A stretch of DNA of 63,725 nucleotides. It comes from Bacteroidales bacterium (GTDB lineage: Bacteria > Bacteroidota > Bacteroidia > Bacteroidales > VadinHA17). The stretch lies in contig JBJKPQ010000043.1 in the NCBI GenBank assembly GCA_046706305.1, positions 1-63,725 on the forward strand, given 5' to 3'. The notes beneath the pieces were generated by a model. That model was given only the letters and a program-made list of their open reading frames with translations. It was not told the DNA's origin and searched no databases. Positions within the stretch are counted from its first letter, which is position 1. The number at the start of each line of letters is the position of its first letter. Below, one piece after another: positions 57,150 through 63,331 of this stretch. The translations under genes and the position numbers were made by a program.

Positions 57150-57932
57150 TTGGCTGAAAACGGGAAAATATATTTTGCCTCCGATTTCCATCTGGGACTT
57201 CCAGCCGGATCTCCTCCGGTAGAAAGAGAGAAAAAGGTTGTCAGATGGTTAAATACCGTGAAGGATGATGCCCGGGCAATATATCTTCTTGGTGATGTTT
57301 TTGATTTCTGGTGGGAATATAGATTGGTTGTCCCGAAGGGATTTACCAGATTCCTTGGGACCGTGGCATCGATTTCTGACTCCGGTATTCCCGTACATTT
57401 TTTTACCGGAAATCACGACATGTGGGTTGGCGATTACCTTACAAGGGAATGCGGAATGACAATACATACCGGCCCGCTCACAACTGTTTTTGACGGACAG
57501 GTGTTCCACCTGGCCCACGGTGAAGGACTGGGAACAAAGGATTTCTCCTACAAAATCCTTCTCGCACTGTTCCGTAATAAATTTCTGCGGAAAATGTATT
57601 CTGCAATACATCCTTACATTGGCATAGGTATCGGGCAAAAATGGTCTCTTAATTCAAGACTTGGGAAGGGGATTATGATGGAATTCCTGGGAGAGGAGAA
57701 AGAAGACCTGATAAGATATGCCCGTTCCGTTCTGAAAACCAGGGGCATTGATTATTTTATCTTTGGGCACAGGCACCTCGCAAGAAATTTTAAACTAAAG
57801 GAAGGACCGGAAATAATATTCCTTGGCGATTGGATAAAAAGCGGAAGCTATGCCGAATGGGATGGCAGCAGGCTTATCTTCAAGAAAGTGGAAGACAAAG
57901 ATAATGTTCAGACATTAACTGTGAGTAAATAA
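57150..57932 (+). CDS. lpxH: UDP-2,3-diacylglucosamine hydrolase (metallophosphoesterase)
   Basis: FASDFHLG, LLGDVFDFW, GNHD, HG, FGHRH, LGDW. Confidence 0.88.
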   Translation: MAENGKIYFASDFHLGLPAGSPPVEREKKVVRWLNTVKDDARAIYLLGDVFDFWWEYRLVVPKGFTRFLGTVASISDSGIPVHFFTGNHDMWVGDYLTRECGMTIHTGPLTTVFDGQVFHLAHGEGLGTKDFSYKILLALFRNKFLRKMYSAIHPYIGIGIGQKWSLNSRLGKGIMMEFLGEEKEDLIRYARSVLKTRGIDYFIFGHRHLARNFKLKEGPEIIFLGDWIKSGSYAEWDGSRLIFKKVEDKDNVQTLTVSK

Positions 57933-59008
57933 TAGGAATAGACCTCGTTTAACTTCTCAAACTGGTATTCCAGTTTACTTCCCGACTTACGTGCTATCTC
58001 AATAAGCCCCATATTACCCGTGCTGTCAGTAAACGTAGTCTGATACGATAAGGATGTTTTAAAAAGGTCTTTAAGACCTTCATAATCATACCTGTTTATT
58101 ATCTCAATCTTCTCCCTGAGTTCGCCGACTCTTTCATTCAAGATGAGATTGCCGGAAGTAAGTGTGTAAATCCCGTCTTTCAACCGCAGAAGTGCTACTG
58201 ACATGCCGAATTCTTTTTCAGCATCTGCACCCGGGCAATAGGAAGAGACATTCTGAAGTATCTCTACAAGAACGCTGAAAACTTTCCTCTTCAGGGAAGC
58301 CTCAACATCTTCCTCGTACATTTTTGTTTCAGTGAGTGTAACAACCTCCTTACCTATGTTTGGAGATATATGCCCTGACCAAATCAGGCATATATTATTC
58401 TCAGCCATCATCCTTTCCAGTTCAGATATCACCCTGCCGTTAAATGCCTTTTCTGCCCCCGGCAGATTACTGCCACGCCCTGATGAATCAACAGTCTTAC
58501 TGAGAATAAAATATGAATATCTGTTATCGAGATCTATAAAATCATAGTCAAGCCTGTTGCCTGTTTTCCTCGCCATCTCCAGCAAGCCCAGTCCTACTCC
58601 TCCCTTATTGCTGAACTCCGATTTTCCCAACATCTTCCTGTAAACCTTTCTTACCTCCTCGGCATCCAGGTGATTTATCTCTTCAAGCTTAGCCCTCAGA
58701 TTGTCGATATGAGATGAAGGCAGTACATTACCTGTTGTCACTGTATATCCGTCGGCTGTTTTCGAGTATACCACAAGCGACATATTTGCAAATTCTACAG
58801 GATCACTGTGCCTAGAAACATTCTGCAGACTTTCCAGAACAAACATAAAAAGTCGTTTCCTCCCCAGGAAATCAAACTCCGCGTTCTCCATTTCACTTTC
58901 GAGAAGCATAATCAAAGGCACTGAATTTTCATCCGTAACAACACCCCGGTAAATGAACATCAGGTTTTCCTGCATCATTTTGTCACGAATCCGCCTTGTC
59001 AGGTCCAT
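57908..59008 (-). CDS. SiaB-family (DUF6272) protein kinase-like protein with two tandem domains
   Basis: Repeat 1: ESLQNVSRH..TTGN..GGVGLGLLEMARKTGNRLDYDF; repeat 2: EILQNVSSY..TSGN..GNMGLIEIARKSGSKLEYQF. Confidence 0.8.
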   Translation of the reverse strand: MDLTRRIRDKMMQENLMFIYRGVVTDENSVPLIMLLESEMENAEFDFLGRKRLFMFVLESLQNVSRHSDPVEFANMSLVVYSKTADGYTVTTGNVLPSSHIDNLRAKLEEINHLDAEEVRKVYRKMLGKSEFSNKGGVGLGLLEMARKTGNRLDYDFIDLDNRYSYFILSKTVDSSGRGSNLPGAEKAFNGRVISELERMMAENNICLIWSGHISPNIGKEVVTLTETKMYEEDVEASLKRKVFSVLVEILQNVSSYCPGADAEKEFGMSVALLRLKDGIYTLTSGNLILNERVGELREKIEIINRYDYEGLKDLFKTSLSYQTTFTDSTGNMGLIEIARKSGSKLEYQFEKLNEVYSYYLLTVNV

Positions 59009-59157: not shown

Positions 59158-59688
59158 TTATTTTTTAGAAGGATCAGGATGAGCTATTTTTGCAGCATAT
59201 GTTTCAAAATTAAATTCCTTGAAGAAAGGATTTTCCTTATTGTGACACTCGAGGCAAAGCTGCTTGTCGGGCATTATAAGACCCATTTTCATAGCCTGCT
59301 CACGGTTCTTCATTACTGAAGGTGATTTGTATGAGCTGCCTGGACCATGACATGTCTCACAGGAAACACCTTCCGTAGGTTTGATGCCTGCCCTTAGTTT
59401 GGCATCAACTCTTTCATAAGTTGAATGGCACTTAAGACATTTCGGATCTTTAGCAGGATCGGCAATGCCATGAGCTTTGGCATAATCGAGCGATTCCTTG
59501 CTGCTCAGTGTCTCCAAGGCCTTTGCATGCGGTCCCTTTTGCCATATTCCATACTGGTTACCAGTATTGGGTTTATTATGACACATCTTGCATTTATCCG
59601 CACCAATGTACTTATATGTCTGAGCTGATACCACGCTTCCCAGTAACAACGACAAACATACCAGCAGAATACCCTTTTTCATAATCAT
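59158..59688 (-). CDS. Periplasmic tetraheme cytochrome c (c554-like)
   Basis: Signal peptide; CKMCH, CLKCH, CETCH, CLECH; YIGADKC..CH and EGVSCETCHGPGS signatures; TATATTTG on the minus strand at 59749-59756. Confidence 0.92.
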   Translation of the reverse strand: MIMKKGILLVCLSLLLGSVVSAQTYKYIGADKCKMCHNKPNTGNQYGIWQKGPHAKALETLSSKESLDYAKAHGIADPAKDPKCLKCHSTYERVDAKLRAGIKPTEGVSCETCHGPGSSYKSPSVMKNREQAMKMGLIMPDKQLCLECHNKENPFFKEFNFETYAAKIAHPDPSKK

Positions 59689-60008
59689 AGTGGTTTAATA
59701 TTAGTTAATAAATTTCTTAATTCTACGGGCAGCTTACAGGCTGCAAAACAAATATATGAAAAATTACTCATACTCACAGATAATATGATTTTTATAATTT
59801 ACATCCAAAAATAGTGCCATAAAGGCTAATATTGTTTTTATCTACTCCTCTTTCCTTTTTTGTAATAAATTGTAAGGATCAGACCCACATTTTCCAAAAT
59901 ATTTTTCATTTTTAGCCCTAACTAATTTGCATGAATTAAAAGTAAAACTAATTTTAAATCATATTTTTATAGTTTGTAACTGCATAATAATCCTATCCTG
60001 ATAACCGT

Positions 60009-60920
60009 ATGAATAATCTCATGACTGAAAATAAGACCGAACTAAAAATTTCAATTGACCAGTATCTTGAATATCTGCTGAAGAAAGGAGGACCCGAACC
60101 TGAAGATTATGAGAAATTTACGGATACAGTCAATAACCTCTCCGCTGAAGAGGTAGAGCCATTCCGGGATAAAATAAAGACTGTCTTAAATGAAAATACT
60201 CTTATAGGACACGGATTTGTCAAACCCTATGGTTACCCGGGCGATTTCAGATTAATTAACAAAATTTATAAGTTTGAGATAAACGAGGAACCATATTACC
60301 GGAACTGGGACCTGTTTTTCCAGAACCAGCCGGGTGCGAATGCGGTGAGGAACAGGAAAGATTTCTTTATGAAGTTCTGTGAAAACCTTCTCGACAAGAA
60401 GGAAAGTGCAAAGGTACTTATACTGGGTTCGGGGCCCGCAACAGATGTATATGAGTTTATATCTAATCATCCCGGGAATAATATAACCTTTGATTTGATA
60501 GATTTTGACCAGTCGGCTATCGATTTTTCCAGGGAGAAAAATCATAAGTTTAACGGGCAGATATCATACAATAAGATAAATGCATTAAGATATAATTCAT
60601 TTAAGCTGTATGATCTTATCTGGAGTGCCGGCCTGTTTGATTATTTCAAAGATAAACATTTTACTTTCCTTATCAGGAAATATGTTAACTGCCTTGATGC
60701 TGAAGGGGAGATGGTAATAAGCAATTTCAGTACAAGGAATCCCACGAAAAGACTTATGGAAGTACTGTCTGACTGGTACCTGAACCTGAGGACCGAATCG
60801 GACCTCTTCAGAATCGCCGCCAATGCCAATGTAGACAGTGAGATGGTCAGCGTTGACAAAGAACCGCTGGGAATAAATCTCTTTTTGAAGATTAAGAAGA
60901 ATCAAACCGGTGGAAAATAA
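60009..60920 (+). CDS. Class I SAM-dependent methyltransferase, PhcB-like
   Basis: KPYGYPGDF, AVRNRK, motif I VLILGSGPA, DFD, YDLIWSAGLFDY, SNF, DWYLNLR. Confidence 0.8.
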   Translation: MNNLMTENKTELKISIDQYLEYLLKKGGPEPEDYEKFTDTVNNLSAEEVEPFRDKIKTVLNENTLIGHGFVKPYGYPGDFRLINKIYKFEINEEPYYRNWDLFFQNQPGANAVRNRKDFFMKFCENLLDKKESAKVLILGSGPATDVYEFISNHPGNNITFDLIDFDQSAIDFSREKNHKFNGQISYNKINALRYNSFKLYDLIWSAGLFDYFKDKHFTFLIRKYVNCLDAEGEMVISNFSTRNPTKRLMEVLSDWYLNLRTESDLFRIAANANVDSEMVSVDKEPLGINLFLKIKKNQTGGK

Positions 60921-60946
60921 TAGTTATAACTAATAACCGATTCCGG

Positions 60947-62923
60947 ATGAGCTTATTAAAAAATAAAGGACTCAATCTGCTTGGACTTTCACCATCAGGA
61001 CAGGAATCAATTTCACTCAATTCGCTCACACTTGACTTTACAGGTGAGTTACGGAAATATGAAAATGATTTCCGCGAGGATTATTTTATTAAATCACTTA
61101 ATCCTTTCAGATTCTCCCTGATATTATCTATGATCTTCTATGGCGCCTTTGCTTTTCTCGATGCCGTTTCCGTTCCAAAATTGAAAGAGTTGTTCTGGTT
61201 TATAAGATTCGGAATAGTGTTTCCTGTTTTTATAGCCGTCTTTATTTTCACTTACTCAAGACTTTTCAAAAAATACATGCAGCTTGTGATTGCATCCATT
61301 ATGTTTATCACGGGTTTTGCAATTATCATAATGATAATCTATGCGTCAAAAGAGCATAATTATGAATATTATGCAGGACTGATGCTCATATTCATTTTTG
61401 GTTACACTTTTATAAGGGCGCGTTTCTTTTATGCATCAATAGCCGGCTGGTCGATAGTGGTAGCCTACGAGATATCGGCTATCTGGATATCCCACACCCC
61501 GGTAGGTATACTTATCAATAACAACTTCTTCTTCATAAGTGCCAATATTATAGGCATGTTCATCAGCTATTTCCTTGAGCTGTCTGCCCGGAAGGAATTC
61601 TATATGAGGATTCTTCTTGAGCAGGAAAAAGAAAATGTAAAAACGGCAAATGATGCCCTTGAAAAAAGGGTTATGGAAAGAACACGACAGTTATCAAATG
61701 CCAATATCGATCTTAAAAAAGAAATTGAGATACGAAAAAAATTCGAGAGGGAAAGAGCTGACCTGGAAAAACAGCTCTTCCAGCTTCAGAAGATGAAAAC
61801 CATTGGCACACTGGCCGGAGGTATAGCACACGACTTCAATAATATCCTTACTCCGATACTCGGGTATACCGATATGGCCCTGGAAGAACTGCCGGAAGAA
61901 AGCAACCTGCGCTTCGATCTCGAACAGATTAACAATGCGGCTGTAAGAGGCAGGGACCTTGTGCAGCAGATACTGACCTTCAGCCGGGAAGTGGACTTCA
62001 ACAAGAAACCGGTTCAGATCCAGCCGATAGTCGCTGAAGTACTGAACCTTCTTAAGTCAACCTCTCCCACAAGTGTTAAAATTAAACAAAAACTTGACCC
62101 GGGTATCGGCACTGTTCTTGCCGACCCAACGCATATTCACCAGATAGTGATGAACCTGTGCACCAATGCCAACCATGCAATGCTCGATTCTGGCGGAATA
62201 CTCGACGTAAGGCTCGAAGCCGTCAAGATCAGCCACCGGTCAGACCCAAGGCTAAGCAACCTTAAAAAAGGCGACTATATCAGACTTCAAATATCGGATA
62301 CCGGTCACGGAATGGATATGGAAACCAAAGAACGAATCTTTGAACCATTTTTCACCCGCAAGGAGGTAGGCTCCGGTTCGGGTCTGGGACTGTCTGTTGT
62401 ACACGGTATAATAAATAACTACGGGGGCGCCATACTGGTTGACAGTTCTCCCGGGAAAGGAACTACATTCAGCATTTACCTGCCCAGGCATGGTACCGAT
62501 CCCGGAAATCTTGATAAACTGGAAAAACAGACATACAAGGGAGATGAGTATATTCTTTTTGTTGATGATGAACCGGAGATTACCTTCCTGGGCAAGAAAA
62601 TGCTTGAGAACCTTGGTTACAGAGTATCCATACAGGGCGACAGCGTTGCTGCTCTCGAGGAATTCAGAAATAACCCGCACAAATATTCTCTCTTGGTCAC
62701 CGACCAGAATATGCCAAAGATTACAGGAACCAGCCTGGCTTCCAGGATGAGGGAAATCAGACCTGATTTAAAAGTTATTATAATTACGGGATATGCCGAA
62801 CACCTTTCAGAAGAAATGATAATGAAACACGGCATATCTGAAGTTATTCTTAAACCAATGATATTAAGCGATTTCAGCAAGGCTATTCGAAGAGCCCTTG
62901 ATGAAGCCAAAGCAAAAAAATAA
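60947..62923 (+). CDS. Membrane-bound hybrid sensor histidine kinase (6 TM, HisKA, HATPase, REC)
   Basis: Six hydrophobic segments; H-box LAGGIAHDFNNIL, N-box QIVMNLCTNA, DTGHGM, FEPFFT, GSGLGL; receiver VDDE/TDQNMP/KP. Confidence 0.95.
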   Translation: MSLLKNKGLNLLGLSPSGQESISLNSLTLDFTGELRKYENDFREDYFIKSLNPFRFSLILSMIFYGAFAFLDAVSVPKLKELFWFIRFGIVFPVFIAVFIFTYSRLFKKYMQLVIASIMFITGFAIIIMIIYASKEHNYEYYAGLMLIFIFGYTFIRARFFYASIAGWSIVVAYEISAIWISHTPVGILINNNFFFISANIIGMFISYFLELSARKEFYMRILLEQEKENVKTANDALEKRVMERTRQLSNANIDLKKEIEIRKKFERERADLEKQLFQLQKMKTIGTLAGGIAHDFNNILTPILGYTDMALEELPEESNLRFDLEQINNAAVRGRDLVQQILTFSREVDFNKKPVQIQPIVAEVLNLLKSTSPTSVKIKQKLDPGIGTVLADPTHIHQIVMNLCTNANHAMLDSGGILDVRLEAVKISHRSDPRLSNLKKGDYIRLQISDTGHGMDMETKERIFEPFFTRKEVGSGSGLGLSVVHGIINNYGGAILVDSSPGKGTTFSIYLPRHGTDPGNLDKLEKQTYKGDEYILFVDDEPEITFLGKKMLENLGYRVSIQGDSVAALEEFRNNPHKYSLLVTDQNMPKITGTSLASRMREIRPDLKVIIITGYAEHLSEEMIMKHGISEVILKPMILSDFSKAIRRALDEAKAKK

Positions 62924-62929
62924 TATATT

Positions 62930-63331
62930 ATGGCAACTGTATATGTTTTTGATGATGAACCTTCAATACTTCTGATGATAAAGAAAATGCTCGAAAAAGC
63001 AGGCCATGAAGTAGGAACTGCCCTTAATGGCAGGGAAGGTATGGAGATGATAAATGAAAAAATTCCCGACCTGATAATTACAGATATTATAATGCCTGAG
63101 AAAGAAGGACTGGAAACCATTATGGAATTGCGCAAGAAGCATCCGGAACTTAAGATCATCGCCATCTCGGGAGGAGGCAGGTTCGGCCCGGAGGGTTATC
63201 TTCCCGGGGCCAAATTGCTTGGAGCAGATATGGTTTTTCAGAAACCTCTCATGCAGAAAGAATTCCTAAATGCCGTCGCCGACTTACTGAATGAGAACAA
63301 AAGGAACAACATGCCTCCAATCCAGCTTTAA
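62930..63331 (+). CDS. Stand-alone receiver-domain response regulator
   Basis: FDDE, ITDIIMP, AISGGG, QKP; no output domain. Confidence 0.93.
   Translation: MATVYVFDDEPSILLMIKKMLEKAGHEVGTALNGREGMEMINEKIPDLIITDIIMPEKEGLETIMELRKKHPELKIIAISGGGRFGPEGYLPGAKLLGADMVFQKPLMQKEFLNAVADLLNENKRNNMPPIQL

Follow-up and report, generated by a model that had tools for sequence, protein, structure and literature searches.

The stretch of DNA analysed here, called the window below, comprises 63,725 nucleotides from a Bacteroidales bacterium (assembly GCA_046706305.1, contig JBJKPQ010000043.1). Near its end three open reading frames (ORFs) lie in series on the same strand, encoding an S-adenosylmethionine (SAM)-dependent methyltransferase, a hybrid sensor histidine kinase and a stand-alone receiver protein. 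Judging from sequence comparisons, this set of genes is a good candidate for a chemical signalling system in Bacteroidota. The original prediction was that of a phcBSR-like cassette, named after the quorum-sensing genes of Ralstonia solanacearum. Homology to the Phc pair was borne out for the enzyme and, probably, for the sensor, as was the linkage between their genes, whereas a PhcR-type protein with receiver and kinase domains is absent from the window and the enzyme is not an orthologue of PhcB.

The first gene (60009-60920, 303 aa) is separated by 26 nt (60921-60946) from the second (60947-62923, 658 aa), which is followed after 6 nt (62924-62929) by the third (62930-63331, 133 aa). The list of ORFs gives the same three co-oriented genes with 26- and 6-nt gaps as had been described. 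We consider that the operon ends at the third ORF, since a convergent gene fragment lies downstream of it.

The product of the first gene was classified as a short form of the PhcB family of SAM-dependent methyltransferases, using Pfam, AlphaFold2, BLASTP, hhalign, a phylogenetic tree and signature residues. In Pfam it gave only sub-threshold matches to generic class I methyltransferases, the best being Methyltransf_31 (25.2 bits, cut-off 27), and in NCBIfam it had no match. The peptides KPYGYPGDF, AVRNRK, LGSGPA, DLIWSAGLFDY and DWYL, from which a methyltransferase had been predicted, are all present in its translation. The protein is composed of a helical cap (residues 16-130, approximately), which carries the motifs KPYGYPGD (72-79) and AVRNR (112-116), and a Rossmann core (residues 131-298, approximately). 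The AlphaFold2 model has a mean predicted local distance difference test score of 95.7, and the closest structure to it in the PDB is 3ocj (Foldseek E 1.2e-12, template modelling (TM) score 0.61, 267 columns, 15% identity), an uncharacterised "possible exported protein" of Bordetella parapertussis and the sole match that spans both cap and core. This structure was also found by sequence with the family profile (E 5.7e-10); at 15% identity and being itself uncharacterised, it says nothing about the substrate of the window enzyme. The remaining structural matches in the PDB were small-molecule methyltransferases with TM scores of at most 0.55, and the PDB matches by sequence, apart from 3ocj, covered only the Rossmann core. 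The ESM Atlas returned only generic clusters of class I SAM-dependent methyltransferases.

The second gene encodes the hybrid kinase, recognised by Pfam and by its BLASTP similarity to the PhcS-type kinase. Pfam identified HisKA (aa 288-347) and HATPase_c (aa 393-514), which form the transmitter (61808-62488), and Response_reg, which is the C-terminal receiver (aa 536-647; 62552-62887). The residues of the phosphorelay are present, namely the phospho-accepting H295 in HisKA and D586 in the receiver. Residues 1-265 have no Pfam family, even at E 10. A hydropathy scan placed about six hydrophobic helices, close to one another, within residues 53-212 and, together with hhalign, delimits a membrane-embedded sensor region of about six transmembrane helices (aa 35-218; 61049-61600). 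A hybrid kinase with a membrane-embedded sensor, as well as a receiver-only regulator, had been foreseen: the product of the third gene contains Response_reg alone in Pfam, without an output domain, and keeps the conserved residues D8, D9, D52, S80 and K105. The predicted complex of the methyltransferase with this stand-alone receiver, run without controls, scored 0.05 against a mark of 0.32, which speaks neither for nor against binding.

Homology of the enzyme, and probably of the sensor, to the Phc system

The Phc-type references used in this analysis are loci with the diagnostic phcBSRQ architecture, one on a Paraburkholderia plasmid and 80 from metagenomes, and not the named Ralstonia proteins. 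On plasmid pPHS1_P of Paraburkholderia graminis, the gene for a 468-aa class I methyltransferase is followed after 2 nt by the gene for a 445-aa kinase and then by two receiver proteins. A metagenome scan with the pPHS1_P enzyme gave the 80 loci, with 54-100% identity and mostly over the full length (462-468 aa matched). Most of the reference loci outside the closest group contain four genes of about 464, 445, 365-400 and 330-340 aa. At the reference locus on a 3.6-Mb contig, the second of these has HisKA from residue 224, the third has a receiver, HisKA and HATPase domains, and the fourth a receiver and an unassigned C-terminus. According to the published descriptions, autophosphorylation of PhcS takes place at H230 (PMC11960443), PhcQ consists of a receiver and an uncharacterised part (PMC6989110), and R22 of PhcB is reported to be conserved in the genera Ralstonia, Cupriavidus and Paraburkholderia (PMC6989110). 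The same arginine is invariant at position 22 of the reference alignment. As the gene architecture fits those descriptions, the reference alignments of enzyme and sensor were treated as Phc-type.

Other searches for reference proteins gave little. A Ralstonia megaplasmid record showed only a 19-bit match to the enzyme, and the phc genes are described as lying on chromosome 1 in Cupriavidus. Two homologue searches aimed at long forms returned the clades fused to a cyclic nucleotide monophosphate (cNMP)-binding domain and those of Myxococcota, with no named Burkholderiales protein, and a tblastn search of plasmids with the PhcS-type sensor recovered nothing but the query.

Two observations were made on the reference proteins themselves. 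In pPHS1_P and its closest metagenome relatives (L145, L146-L157) the third phc-like gene is shorter than the gene of about 365-400 aa, with receiver and kinase, of L158-L225; in pPHS1_P it encodes a 134-aa receiver only. Residues 1-200 of the PhcB-type enzyme have no Pfam match, and by eye they resemble the N-termini of two 470-475-aa proteins (P0364, P0376) and look like a beta-barrel (PilZ-like) domain; a recognised PilZ domain occurs in family members P0144 and P0281.

The window enzyme matched the Paraburkholderia enzyme directly in BLASTP (E 5e-26, 25% identity over 237 aa), residues 56-269 being aligned with 203-437. With hhalign, the family profile matched the single Paraburkholderia enzyme at 99.9% (E 1.5e-32) and the PhcB-type alignment at 100% (E 7.8e-41, 235 columns), in the latter case with window residues 62-298 against 209-463. 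On the strength of these alignments the methyltransferase family is judged homologous to the catalytic module of the PhcB type. The broad family carries KPxGYxGD, AxRNR, GxGP, GLxDY and W.L..R. The motifs KPxGYxGD, AVRNR and SAGLFDY, which had been put forward as PhcB-type, proved to be real family signatures belonging to a set of 24 shared positions, and the impression that a 303-aa protein is shorter than PhcB is borne out by the alignment, in which the N-terminal 200 aa or so are missing.

A quick maximum-likelihood tree (IQ-TREE) of 124 catalytic modules separated the family into two clades by a branch with a Shimodaira-Hasegawa-like approximate likelihood ratio test value of 100. The long-form clade (37 rows) contains the PhcB type, the cNMP-fused and Myxococcota forms, one PilZ fusion and a patatin fusion. 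The short-form clade (87 rows) contains the window enzyme, all Bacteroidales, the green sulfur bacteria and the fusions to KAS III, acyl-CoA dehydrogenase, desaturase, AraC-type and HTH domains. Signature columns, in which at least 85% of the rows of each clade share one and the same residue, numbered 24, and the window enzyme has the signature residue in every one: K72, P73, G75, Y76, G78, D79, A112, R114, N115, R116, G142, P143, G208, L209, D211, Y212, G233, N239, N244, M250, W256, L258, R261 and F292. By these sequence criteria the enzyme can be regarded as a member of the PhcB family in a broad sense, not as an orthologue.

The family is a large one. In an exhaustive search of cluster representatives, 3,732 matched at E <=0.001 and 232 of these also at E <=1e-30, most of them having about 300 aa. 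There are in addition two classes of longer proteins, a large one fused to a cNMP-binding domain (about 475-487 aa) and one of Myxococcota (about 465-480 aa). Among the longer members there are fusions to KAS III, to acyl-CoA dehydrogenase with or without an ACP domain, and to a fatty-acid desaturase. Since these partners are fatty-acyl enzymes, a substrate derived from a fatty acyl group can be argued for. Other fusions are to PilZ, AraC-type and HTH_3 domains, and in other Bacteroidota to a patatin phospholipase and a cNMP-binding domain. The partners thus include second-messenger domains, which shows that enzymes of this family are often under direct regulation. The patatin-like phospholipase fusion (L128:1976-3868, - strand, 630 aa) lies beside a divergent gene for an 819-aa kinase, and the cNMP-binding fusion is at L127:5541-6995 (485 aa).

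Among the matches listed, 35 of the 120 closest homologues carry the Joint Genome Institute product name "3-hydroxypalmitic acid methyl ester biosynthesis protein", which we take to be the KEGG K19620/phcB label. More distant homologues were found on plasmids. One in Rhizobium sp. K102 (L144, about 26% identity) is flanked by an EAL-domain protein on one side and an adenylate/guanylate cyclase on the other, with an AraC regulator nearby, and in an Enterobacter ludwigii plasmid match the domain belongs to a type I polyketide synthase.

The alignment of window-type sensors gave 45.5% in hhalign against the single Paraburkholderia kinase and 94.1% (E 1.3e-7, 177 columns, covering the whole transmembrane region) against the PhcS-type sensor alignment, while unrelated six-helix sensors used as controls gave 0.6% and 6.3%. 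From these profiles the membrane sensor of the kinase is probably homologous to that of PhcS. The cytoplasmic part of the kinase matched the PhcS-type kinase by BLASTP (E 7.7e-24, 27% identity, 332 aa). For the stand-alone receiver, BLASTP gave no match to PhcQ, and the match to the PhcR receiver was weak (E 7.4e-6).

A genus relative (G023, L142:5481-13992) has a more divergent member of the sensor family without the methyltransferase. There an orphan kinase, which combines a six-helix sensor of this family with a PAS domain, is encoded immediately upstream of a TetR regulator and a resistance-nodulation-division (RND) efflux operon (OEP, HlyD, AcrB), a context hinting at a more general role of the sensor family in detecting hydrophobic compounds.

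Conservation and co-variation of the gene set

The best 80 loci were taken from a species-representative genome collection, in which at least 588 of at least 599 pattern matches were confirmed. Seventy-eight of them are labelled as uncultured Bacteroidales, Bacteroidota, "Bacteroides", Rikenellaceae or similar metagenome-assembled genomes; of the other two, L070 is labelled Ignavibacterium and L036 only "metagenome genome assembly". Judging by the isolate names, the sources are fen, peat, soil and sediment. The enzyme has a patchy distribution in the window's genus, being found in 7 of 25 genomes, the window's own included. An even draw of 401 Bacteroidota genomes contained 20 that match the family profile at E <=1e-10, about 13 of them of family length (E <1e-40). 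Most of these family-length matches came from one family of another class (11/87), and the 7 other genomes of the window's order in that draw had none.

Wherever the enzyme is present in genus relatives, the trio of enzyme, kinase and receiver is kept (6/6). Moreover, strong matches to the sensor alignment occurred in exactly the 7 enzyme-bearing genomes among the 25 of the genus sample. Among the best 80 loci, 63 of the 64 with at least 3.6 kb of downstream sequence have a homologous sensor directly downstream, as well as the receiver. The sensor was also found in 10 of the 12 loci with 0.9-3.6 kb, and four loci are too short to tell. There are three exceptions. In L092 and L093 a related hybrid kinase lies upstream, the order in L093 being kinase, a protein with receiver and HisKA_2 domains, and enzyme, and L094 has no kinase within 7 kb downstream, with upstream sequence of only 130 bp. 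When the neighbouring ORFs of the 80 loci were clustered, three families stood out, the enzyme (79 loci), the kinase (71) and the receiver (68), whereas no other was present in more than 19. The arrangement is not due to chance, the trio being the only conserved neighbourhood. The survey proposed with the original prediction thus found methyltransferase and kinase to be coupled.

Pairwise divergence was compared across 65 complete Bacteroidales modules, with control for the catalytic core of the kinase, and in 32 non-overlapping sister pairs. The enzyme co-varied with the sensor domain (partial r 0.46, bootstrap 0.34-0.54; Spearman rho of residuals in sister pairs 0.68, p 2e-5) and with the linker (partial r 0.42, bootstrap 0.33-0.51; rho 0.37, p 0.03), as well as with the kinase's own receiver (partial r 0.25, bootstrap 0.16-0.33; rho 0.56, p 8e-4). 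With the stand-alone receiver the partial r was -0.01 (bootstrap -0.12 to 0.12) and rho was 0.05 (p 0.78). These results favour a functional tie of the enzyme to the sensor rather than to the stand-alone receiver.

The spacing of the first two genes varies within Bacteroidales. A subgroup (L054, L063-L078, L083) has a methyltransferase-kinase spacer of 150-340 nt, and in L046-L062 the genes abut or overlap. Relative to the window, the long-spacer subgroup has a lower identity in the methyltransferase and a higher one in the receiver, which hints at mosaic histories within the operon.

Two genes on the - strand precede the operon. The second gene upstream, divergent from the operon, is SiaB-like (57908-59008, 366 aa) and encodes two tandem SiaB-family kinase/DUF6272 modules (NF038262, 242.6 bits; PF19788 in two stretches). 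Between it and the operon lies a gene for a small multihaem c-type cytochrome (59158-59688, Cytochrome_C554, E 5e-18), which is at the same place in the closest relatives only (L015, L016, L038) and elsewhere in L035. Both were considered as parts of the module and rejected, as they are neighbours in close relatives only and hence lineage-specific. The intergenic region (59689-60008, 320 nt) between the divergent cytochrome c gene and the methyltransferase gene is AT-rich (GC about 0.36) and presumably contains a promoter. The promoter consensus used for a motif count, TAnnTTTG, has no exact + strand match in this region, and the window as a whole contains no excess of it (63 occurrences, 58.8 expected). 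A sigma-70-type promoter scan is not suited to Bacteroidota, and we claim neither a promoter nor a terminator.

The green sulfur bacterial counterpart

The other class with full-length family members is that of the green sulfur bacteria, as judged by the FMO protein family, found in 5/5 of the genomes tested and in 0/14 controls. Their enzymes are 34-38% identical to that of the window, and at 8 of 8 loci they lie directly beside a hybrid kinase on the same strand, in either order. This partner kinase has 703-727 aa, about six N-terminal helices and two receivers (the reading of 830 aa for L129 is over-extended at the start). Its cytoplasmic core is LuxN-like (NF041945, 341.8 bits, below the cut-off of 1550). 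The green sulfur sensor is unrelated to that of the window (hhalign 0.6%), so the possibility that all the partner sensors form one family was rejected. For synthase-receptor pairs one would expect just such a recurrence of the enzyme beside a receptor of another family.

In one green sulfur genome (G061, L123) a paralogue of the partner kinase, at a distance of 4 kb, adjoins an amine oxidase and a synthase of the AfsA (butyrolactone-type) family. Because of this neighbour, the green sulfur kinase family can be associated with a recognised family of signal synthases. This second, putative synthase-receptor set (L123:8526-12933) consists of the A-factor/butyrolactone-type synthase, an amine-oxidase-like flavoprotein and a 702-aa hybrid kinase with six transmembrane helices, and sits 0.6 kb downstream of the methyltransferase-kinase pair; it would mean that two candidate signalling systems are found side by side in one green sulfur bacterium.

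A proposed Phc-like cassette and its alternatives

We are inclined to regard the three genes as a self-contained Phc-like cassette of signal synthase, receptor and relay, working with a methylated signal derived from a fatty acyl group; this seems to us somewhat probable. The 303-aa methyltransferase would use SAM to methyl-esterify an acid of fatty-acyl origin, a substrate class suggested by the relatives of the enzyme. PhcB makes methyl 3-hydroxymyristate or methyl 3-hydroxypalmitate, and Bacteroidota make abundant 3-hydroxy fatty acids; by analogy with both, the likeliest substrate would be a 3-hydroxy fatty acid. The hydrophobic product would partition into membranes, where the PhcS-like six-helix sensor of the adjacent kinase may detect it, and would be released and shared between cells. 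The kinase is expected to autophosphorylate on H295 and to pass the phosphate to D586 of its own receiver, to D52 of the stand-alone receiver, or to both, and the latter may act on an unlinked partner by protein-protein contact.

The likeness to the Phc operon lies in the gene order, a SAM methyltransferase gene directly upstream of the gene for a membrane histidine kinase and then, less clearly alike, one or more receivers without a DNA-binding domain, and in a homologous catalytic module and, probably, a homologous sensor of about six transmembrane helices, with the phospho-accepting histidine soon after the transmembrane region. There are also differences. PhcB has about 464-468 aa with an N-terminal domain of about 200 aa, whereas the window enzyme, at 303 aa, belongs to the sister clade and differs at 24 fixed positions. 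PhcS has no fused receiver, whereas the window kinase is a hybrid. The Phc operon includes a PhcR-type protein with receiver and kinase domains, which the window lacks, although a receiver-HisKA_2 protein is present in the variant Bacteroidota locus L093, and the 133-aa window receiver lacks the C-terminal part of PhcQ (about 337 aa in L208).

Other known systems may also be compared. The sensors of CqsS and LqsS have a six-helix topology. As with LuxN, CqsS and LqsS, the putative synthase gene of the cassette lies beside that of a multi-helix hybrid kinase which would sense a hydrophobic signal in the membrane; unlike in those systems, the putative synthase is a methyltransferase and not of the LuxM/CqsA type, and the window sensor scores only the above 0.6% against that of the LuxN-like green sulfur partners. 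The RpfF/RpfC system of Xanthomonas, which uses the diffusible signal factor (DSF), has a fatty-acid-derived signal, as proposed here, and a hybrid kinase with a fused receiver beside the synthase (PMC6989110). RpfF is a crotonase-family enzyme whereas ours is a methyltransferase; we note a likeness without a claim of homology.

Several points weigh against a Phc-like signalling cassette. The window enzyme falls outside the PhcB clade, in its sister clade, and is without the N-terminal domain of PhcB (its residues 56-298 align to 203-463). Furthermore, 24 positions are fixed differently in Bacteroidales and in the PhcB type, many of them beside the motifs; for this reason the chemistry of the enzyme may differ from that of PhcB, and a substrate different from PhcB's is plausible. 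The window contains no PhcR-type protein and no DNA-binding output, and no PhcA-like gene was seen in the conserved module, no search aimed at PhcA-like regulators having been made. The reference set is defined by architecture and by one named Paraburkholderia plasmid, and not by the studied Ralstonia proteins. For the sensors, the evidence of homology is one profile-profile score of 94% between transmembrane alignments of low diversity, and the sensor family also occurs without the enzyme, in the PAS-containing kinase beside the TetR/RND efflux operon. The distant homologue of Rhizobium adjoins an EAL-domain protein and a cyclase and not a kinase; the PilZ, cNMP-binding and HTH fusions are as compatible with a regulated enzyme as with a signal synthase. 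Finally, the co-variation could partly reflect block recombination or joint replacement of adjacent DNA.

The main rival to a shared signal is a circuit in which the kinase senses a membrane or lipid cue, such as free fatty acids or another hydrophobic stress, and the relay controls a methyltransferase that modifies or detoxifies a cellular lipid. The methylated molecule would in that case be a physiological end product. It would be a simple account of a trio which has no DNA-binding output and is self-contained in varying contexts, the enzyme itself being the output. The frequent fusion of the family directly to signalling inputs (PilZ and cNMP-binding domains) and the paralogous sensor beside an efflux operon are in keeping with it, and fusions to lipid enzymes fit lipid modification as well as signal synthesis. 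However, the enzyme co-varies with the sensor and not with the stand-alone receiver, the opposite of what contact between regulator and enzyme predicts. Moreover, the enzyme and, probably, the sensor are homologous to a pair whose synthase-receptor relation is experimentally established in Ralstonia, and the paralogue of the green sulfur partner kinase is paired with a bona fide signal-synthase family. Taking both sides together, we find such a circuit rather unlikely.

Two minor rivals need less discussion. The linkage might be transcriptional only, with an ordinary two-component system in control of a biosynthetic methyltransferase unrelated to it, or the other way round, and no ligand connecting them. 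Two-component genes commonly adjoin the genes they control, but the module has no DNA-binding regulator, the enzyme is found paired with kinases of unrelated families in different lineages, the pairing is common to the Phc system at the level of homology, and enzyme and sensor co-vary; we hold this explanation to be improbable. Least credible is that the enzyme methylates a protein, for instance the kinase or the receiver, as in CheR-like adaptation, and not a lipid: in Pfam some homologues weakly match the SAM-binding domain of CheR (E 2.7e-5 to 8.5e-4, sub-threshold) and one Deinococcus plasmid homologue is annotated as "chemotaxis protein CheR", but those matches cover only the generic Rossmann part, the window enzyme has no CheR match at E 0.01, the fusions are to fatty-acyl enzymes and not to chemotaxis proteins, and the closest characterised relatives are small-molecule methyltransferases, PhcB itself acting on a fatty acid according to the literature.

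To our knowledge there is no characterised autoinducer synthase-receptor pair of Bacteroidota's own. In the literature searched we found no description of Phc-type systems outside Betaproteobacteria, and a survey that covered Pseudomonadota only gives the phc cluster as restricted to Betaproteobacteria, the system being regarded as limited to a few genera there (PMC10653808). We tentatively propose, as a possibility wider than the Phc-like cassette itself and more doubtful, that PhcB-family methyltransferases with multi-helix membrane kinases form an old and widespread class of lipid-ester cell-cell signalling and not a betaproteobacterial speciality. Bacteroidales would then have a short, unregulated synthase, a PhcS-like receptor and a signal of their own, for example a branched 3-hydroxy fatty acid methyl ester, in the green sulfur bacteria this family of synthases would have been re-wired to a receptor of the LuxN-like kind, and the fused forms (patatin, KAS III, ACP) would make precursor and signal with a single protein.

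Green sulfur bacteria include cultured strains, and these could be a route to the genetics of the enzyme-kinase pair. If the interpretation as a signalling cassette is true, a homologous but re-built cassette would extend fatty-acid methyl-ester signalling across phyla, and microbial ecologists would have a definite pair of genes, with a predicted class of molecule, to seek in anoxic environments.

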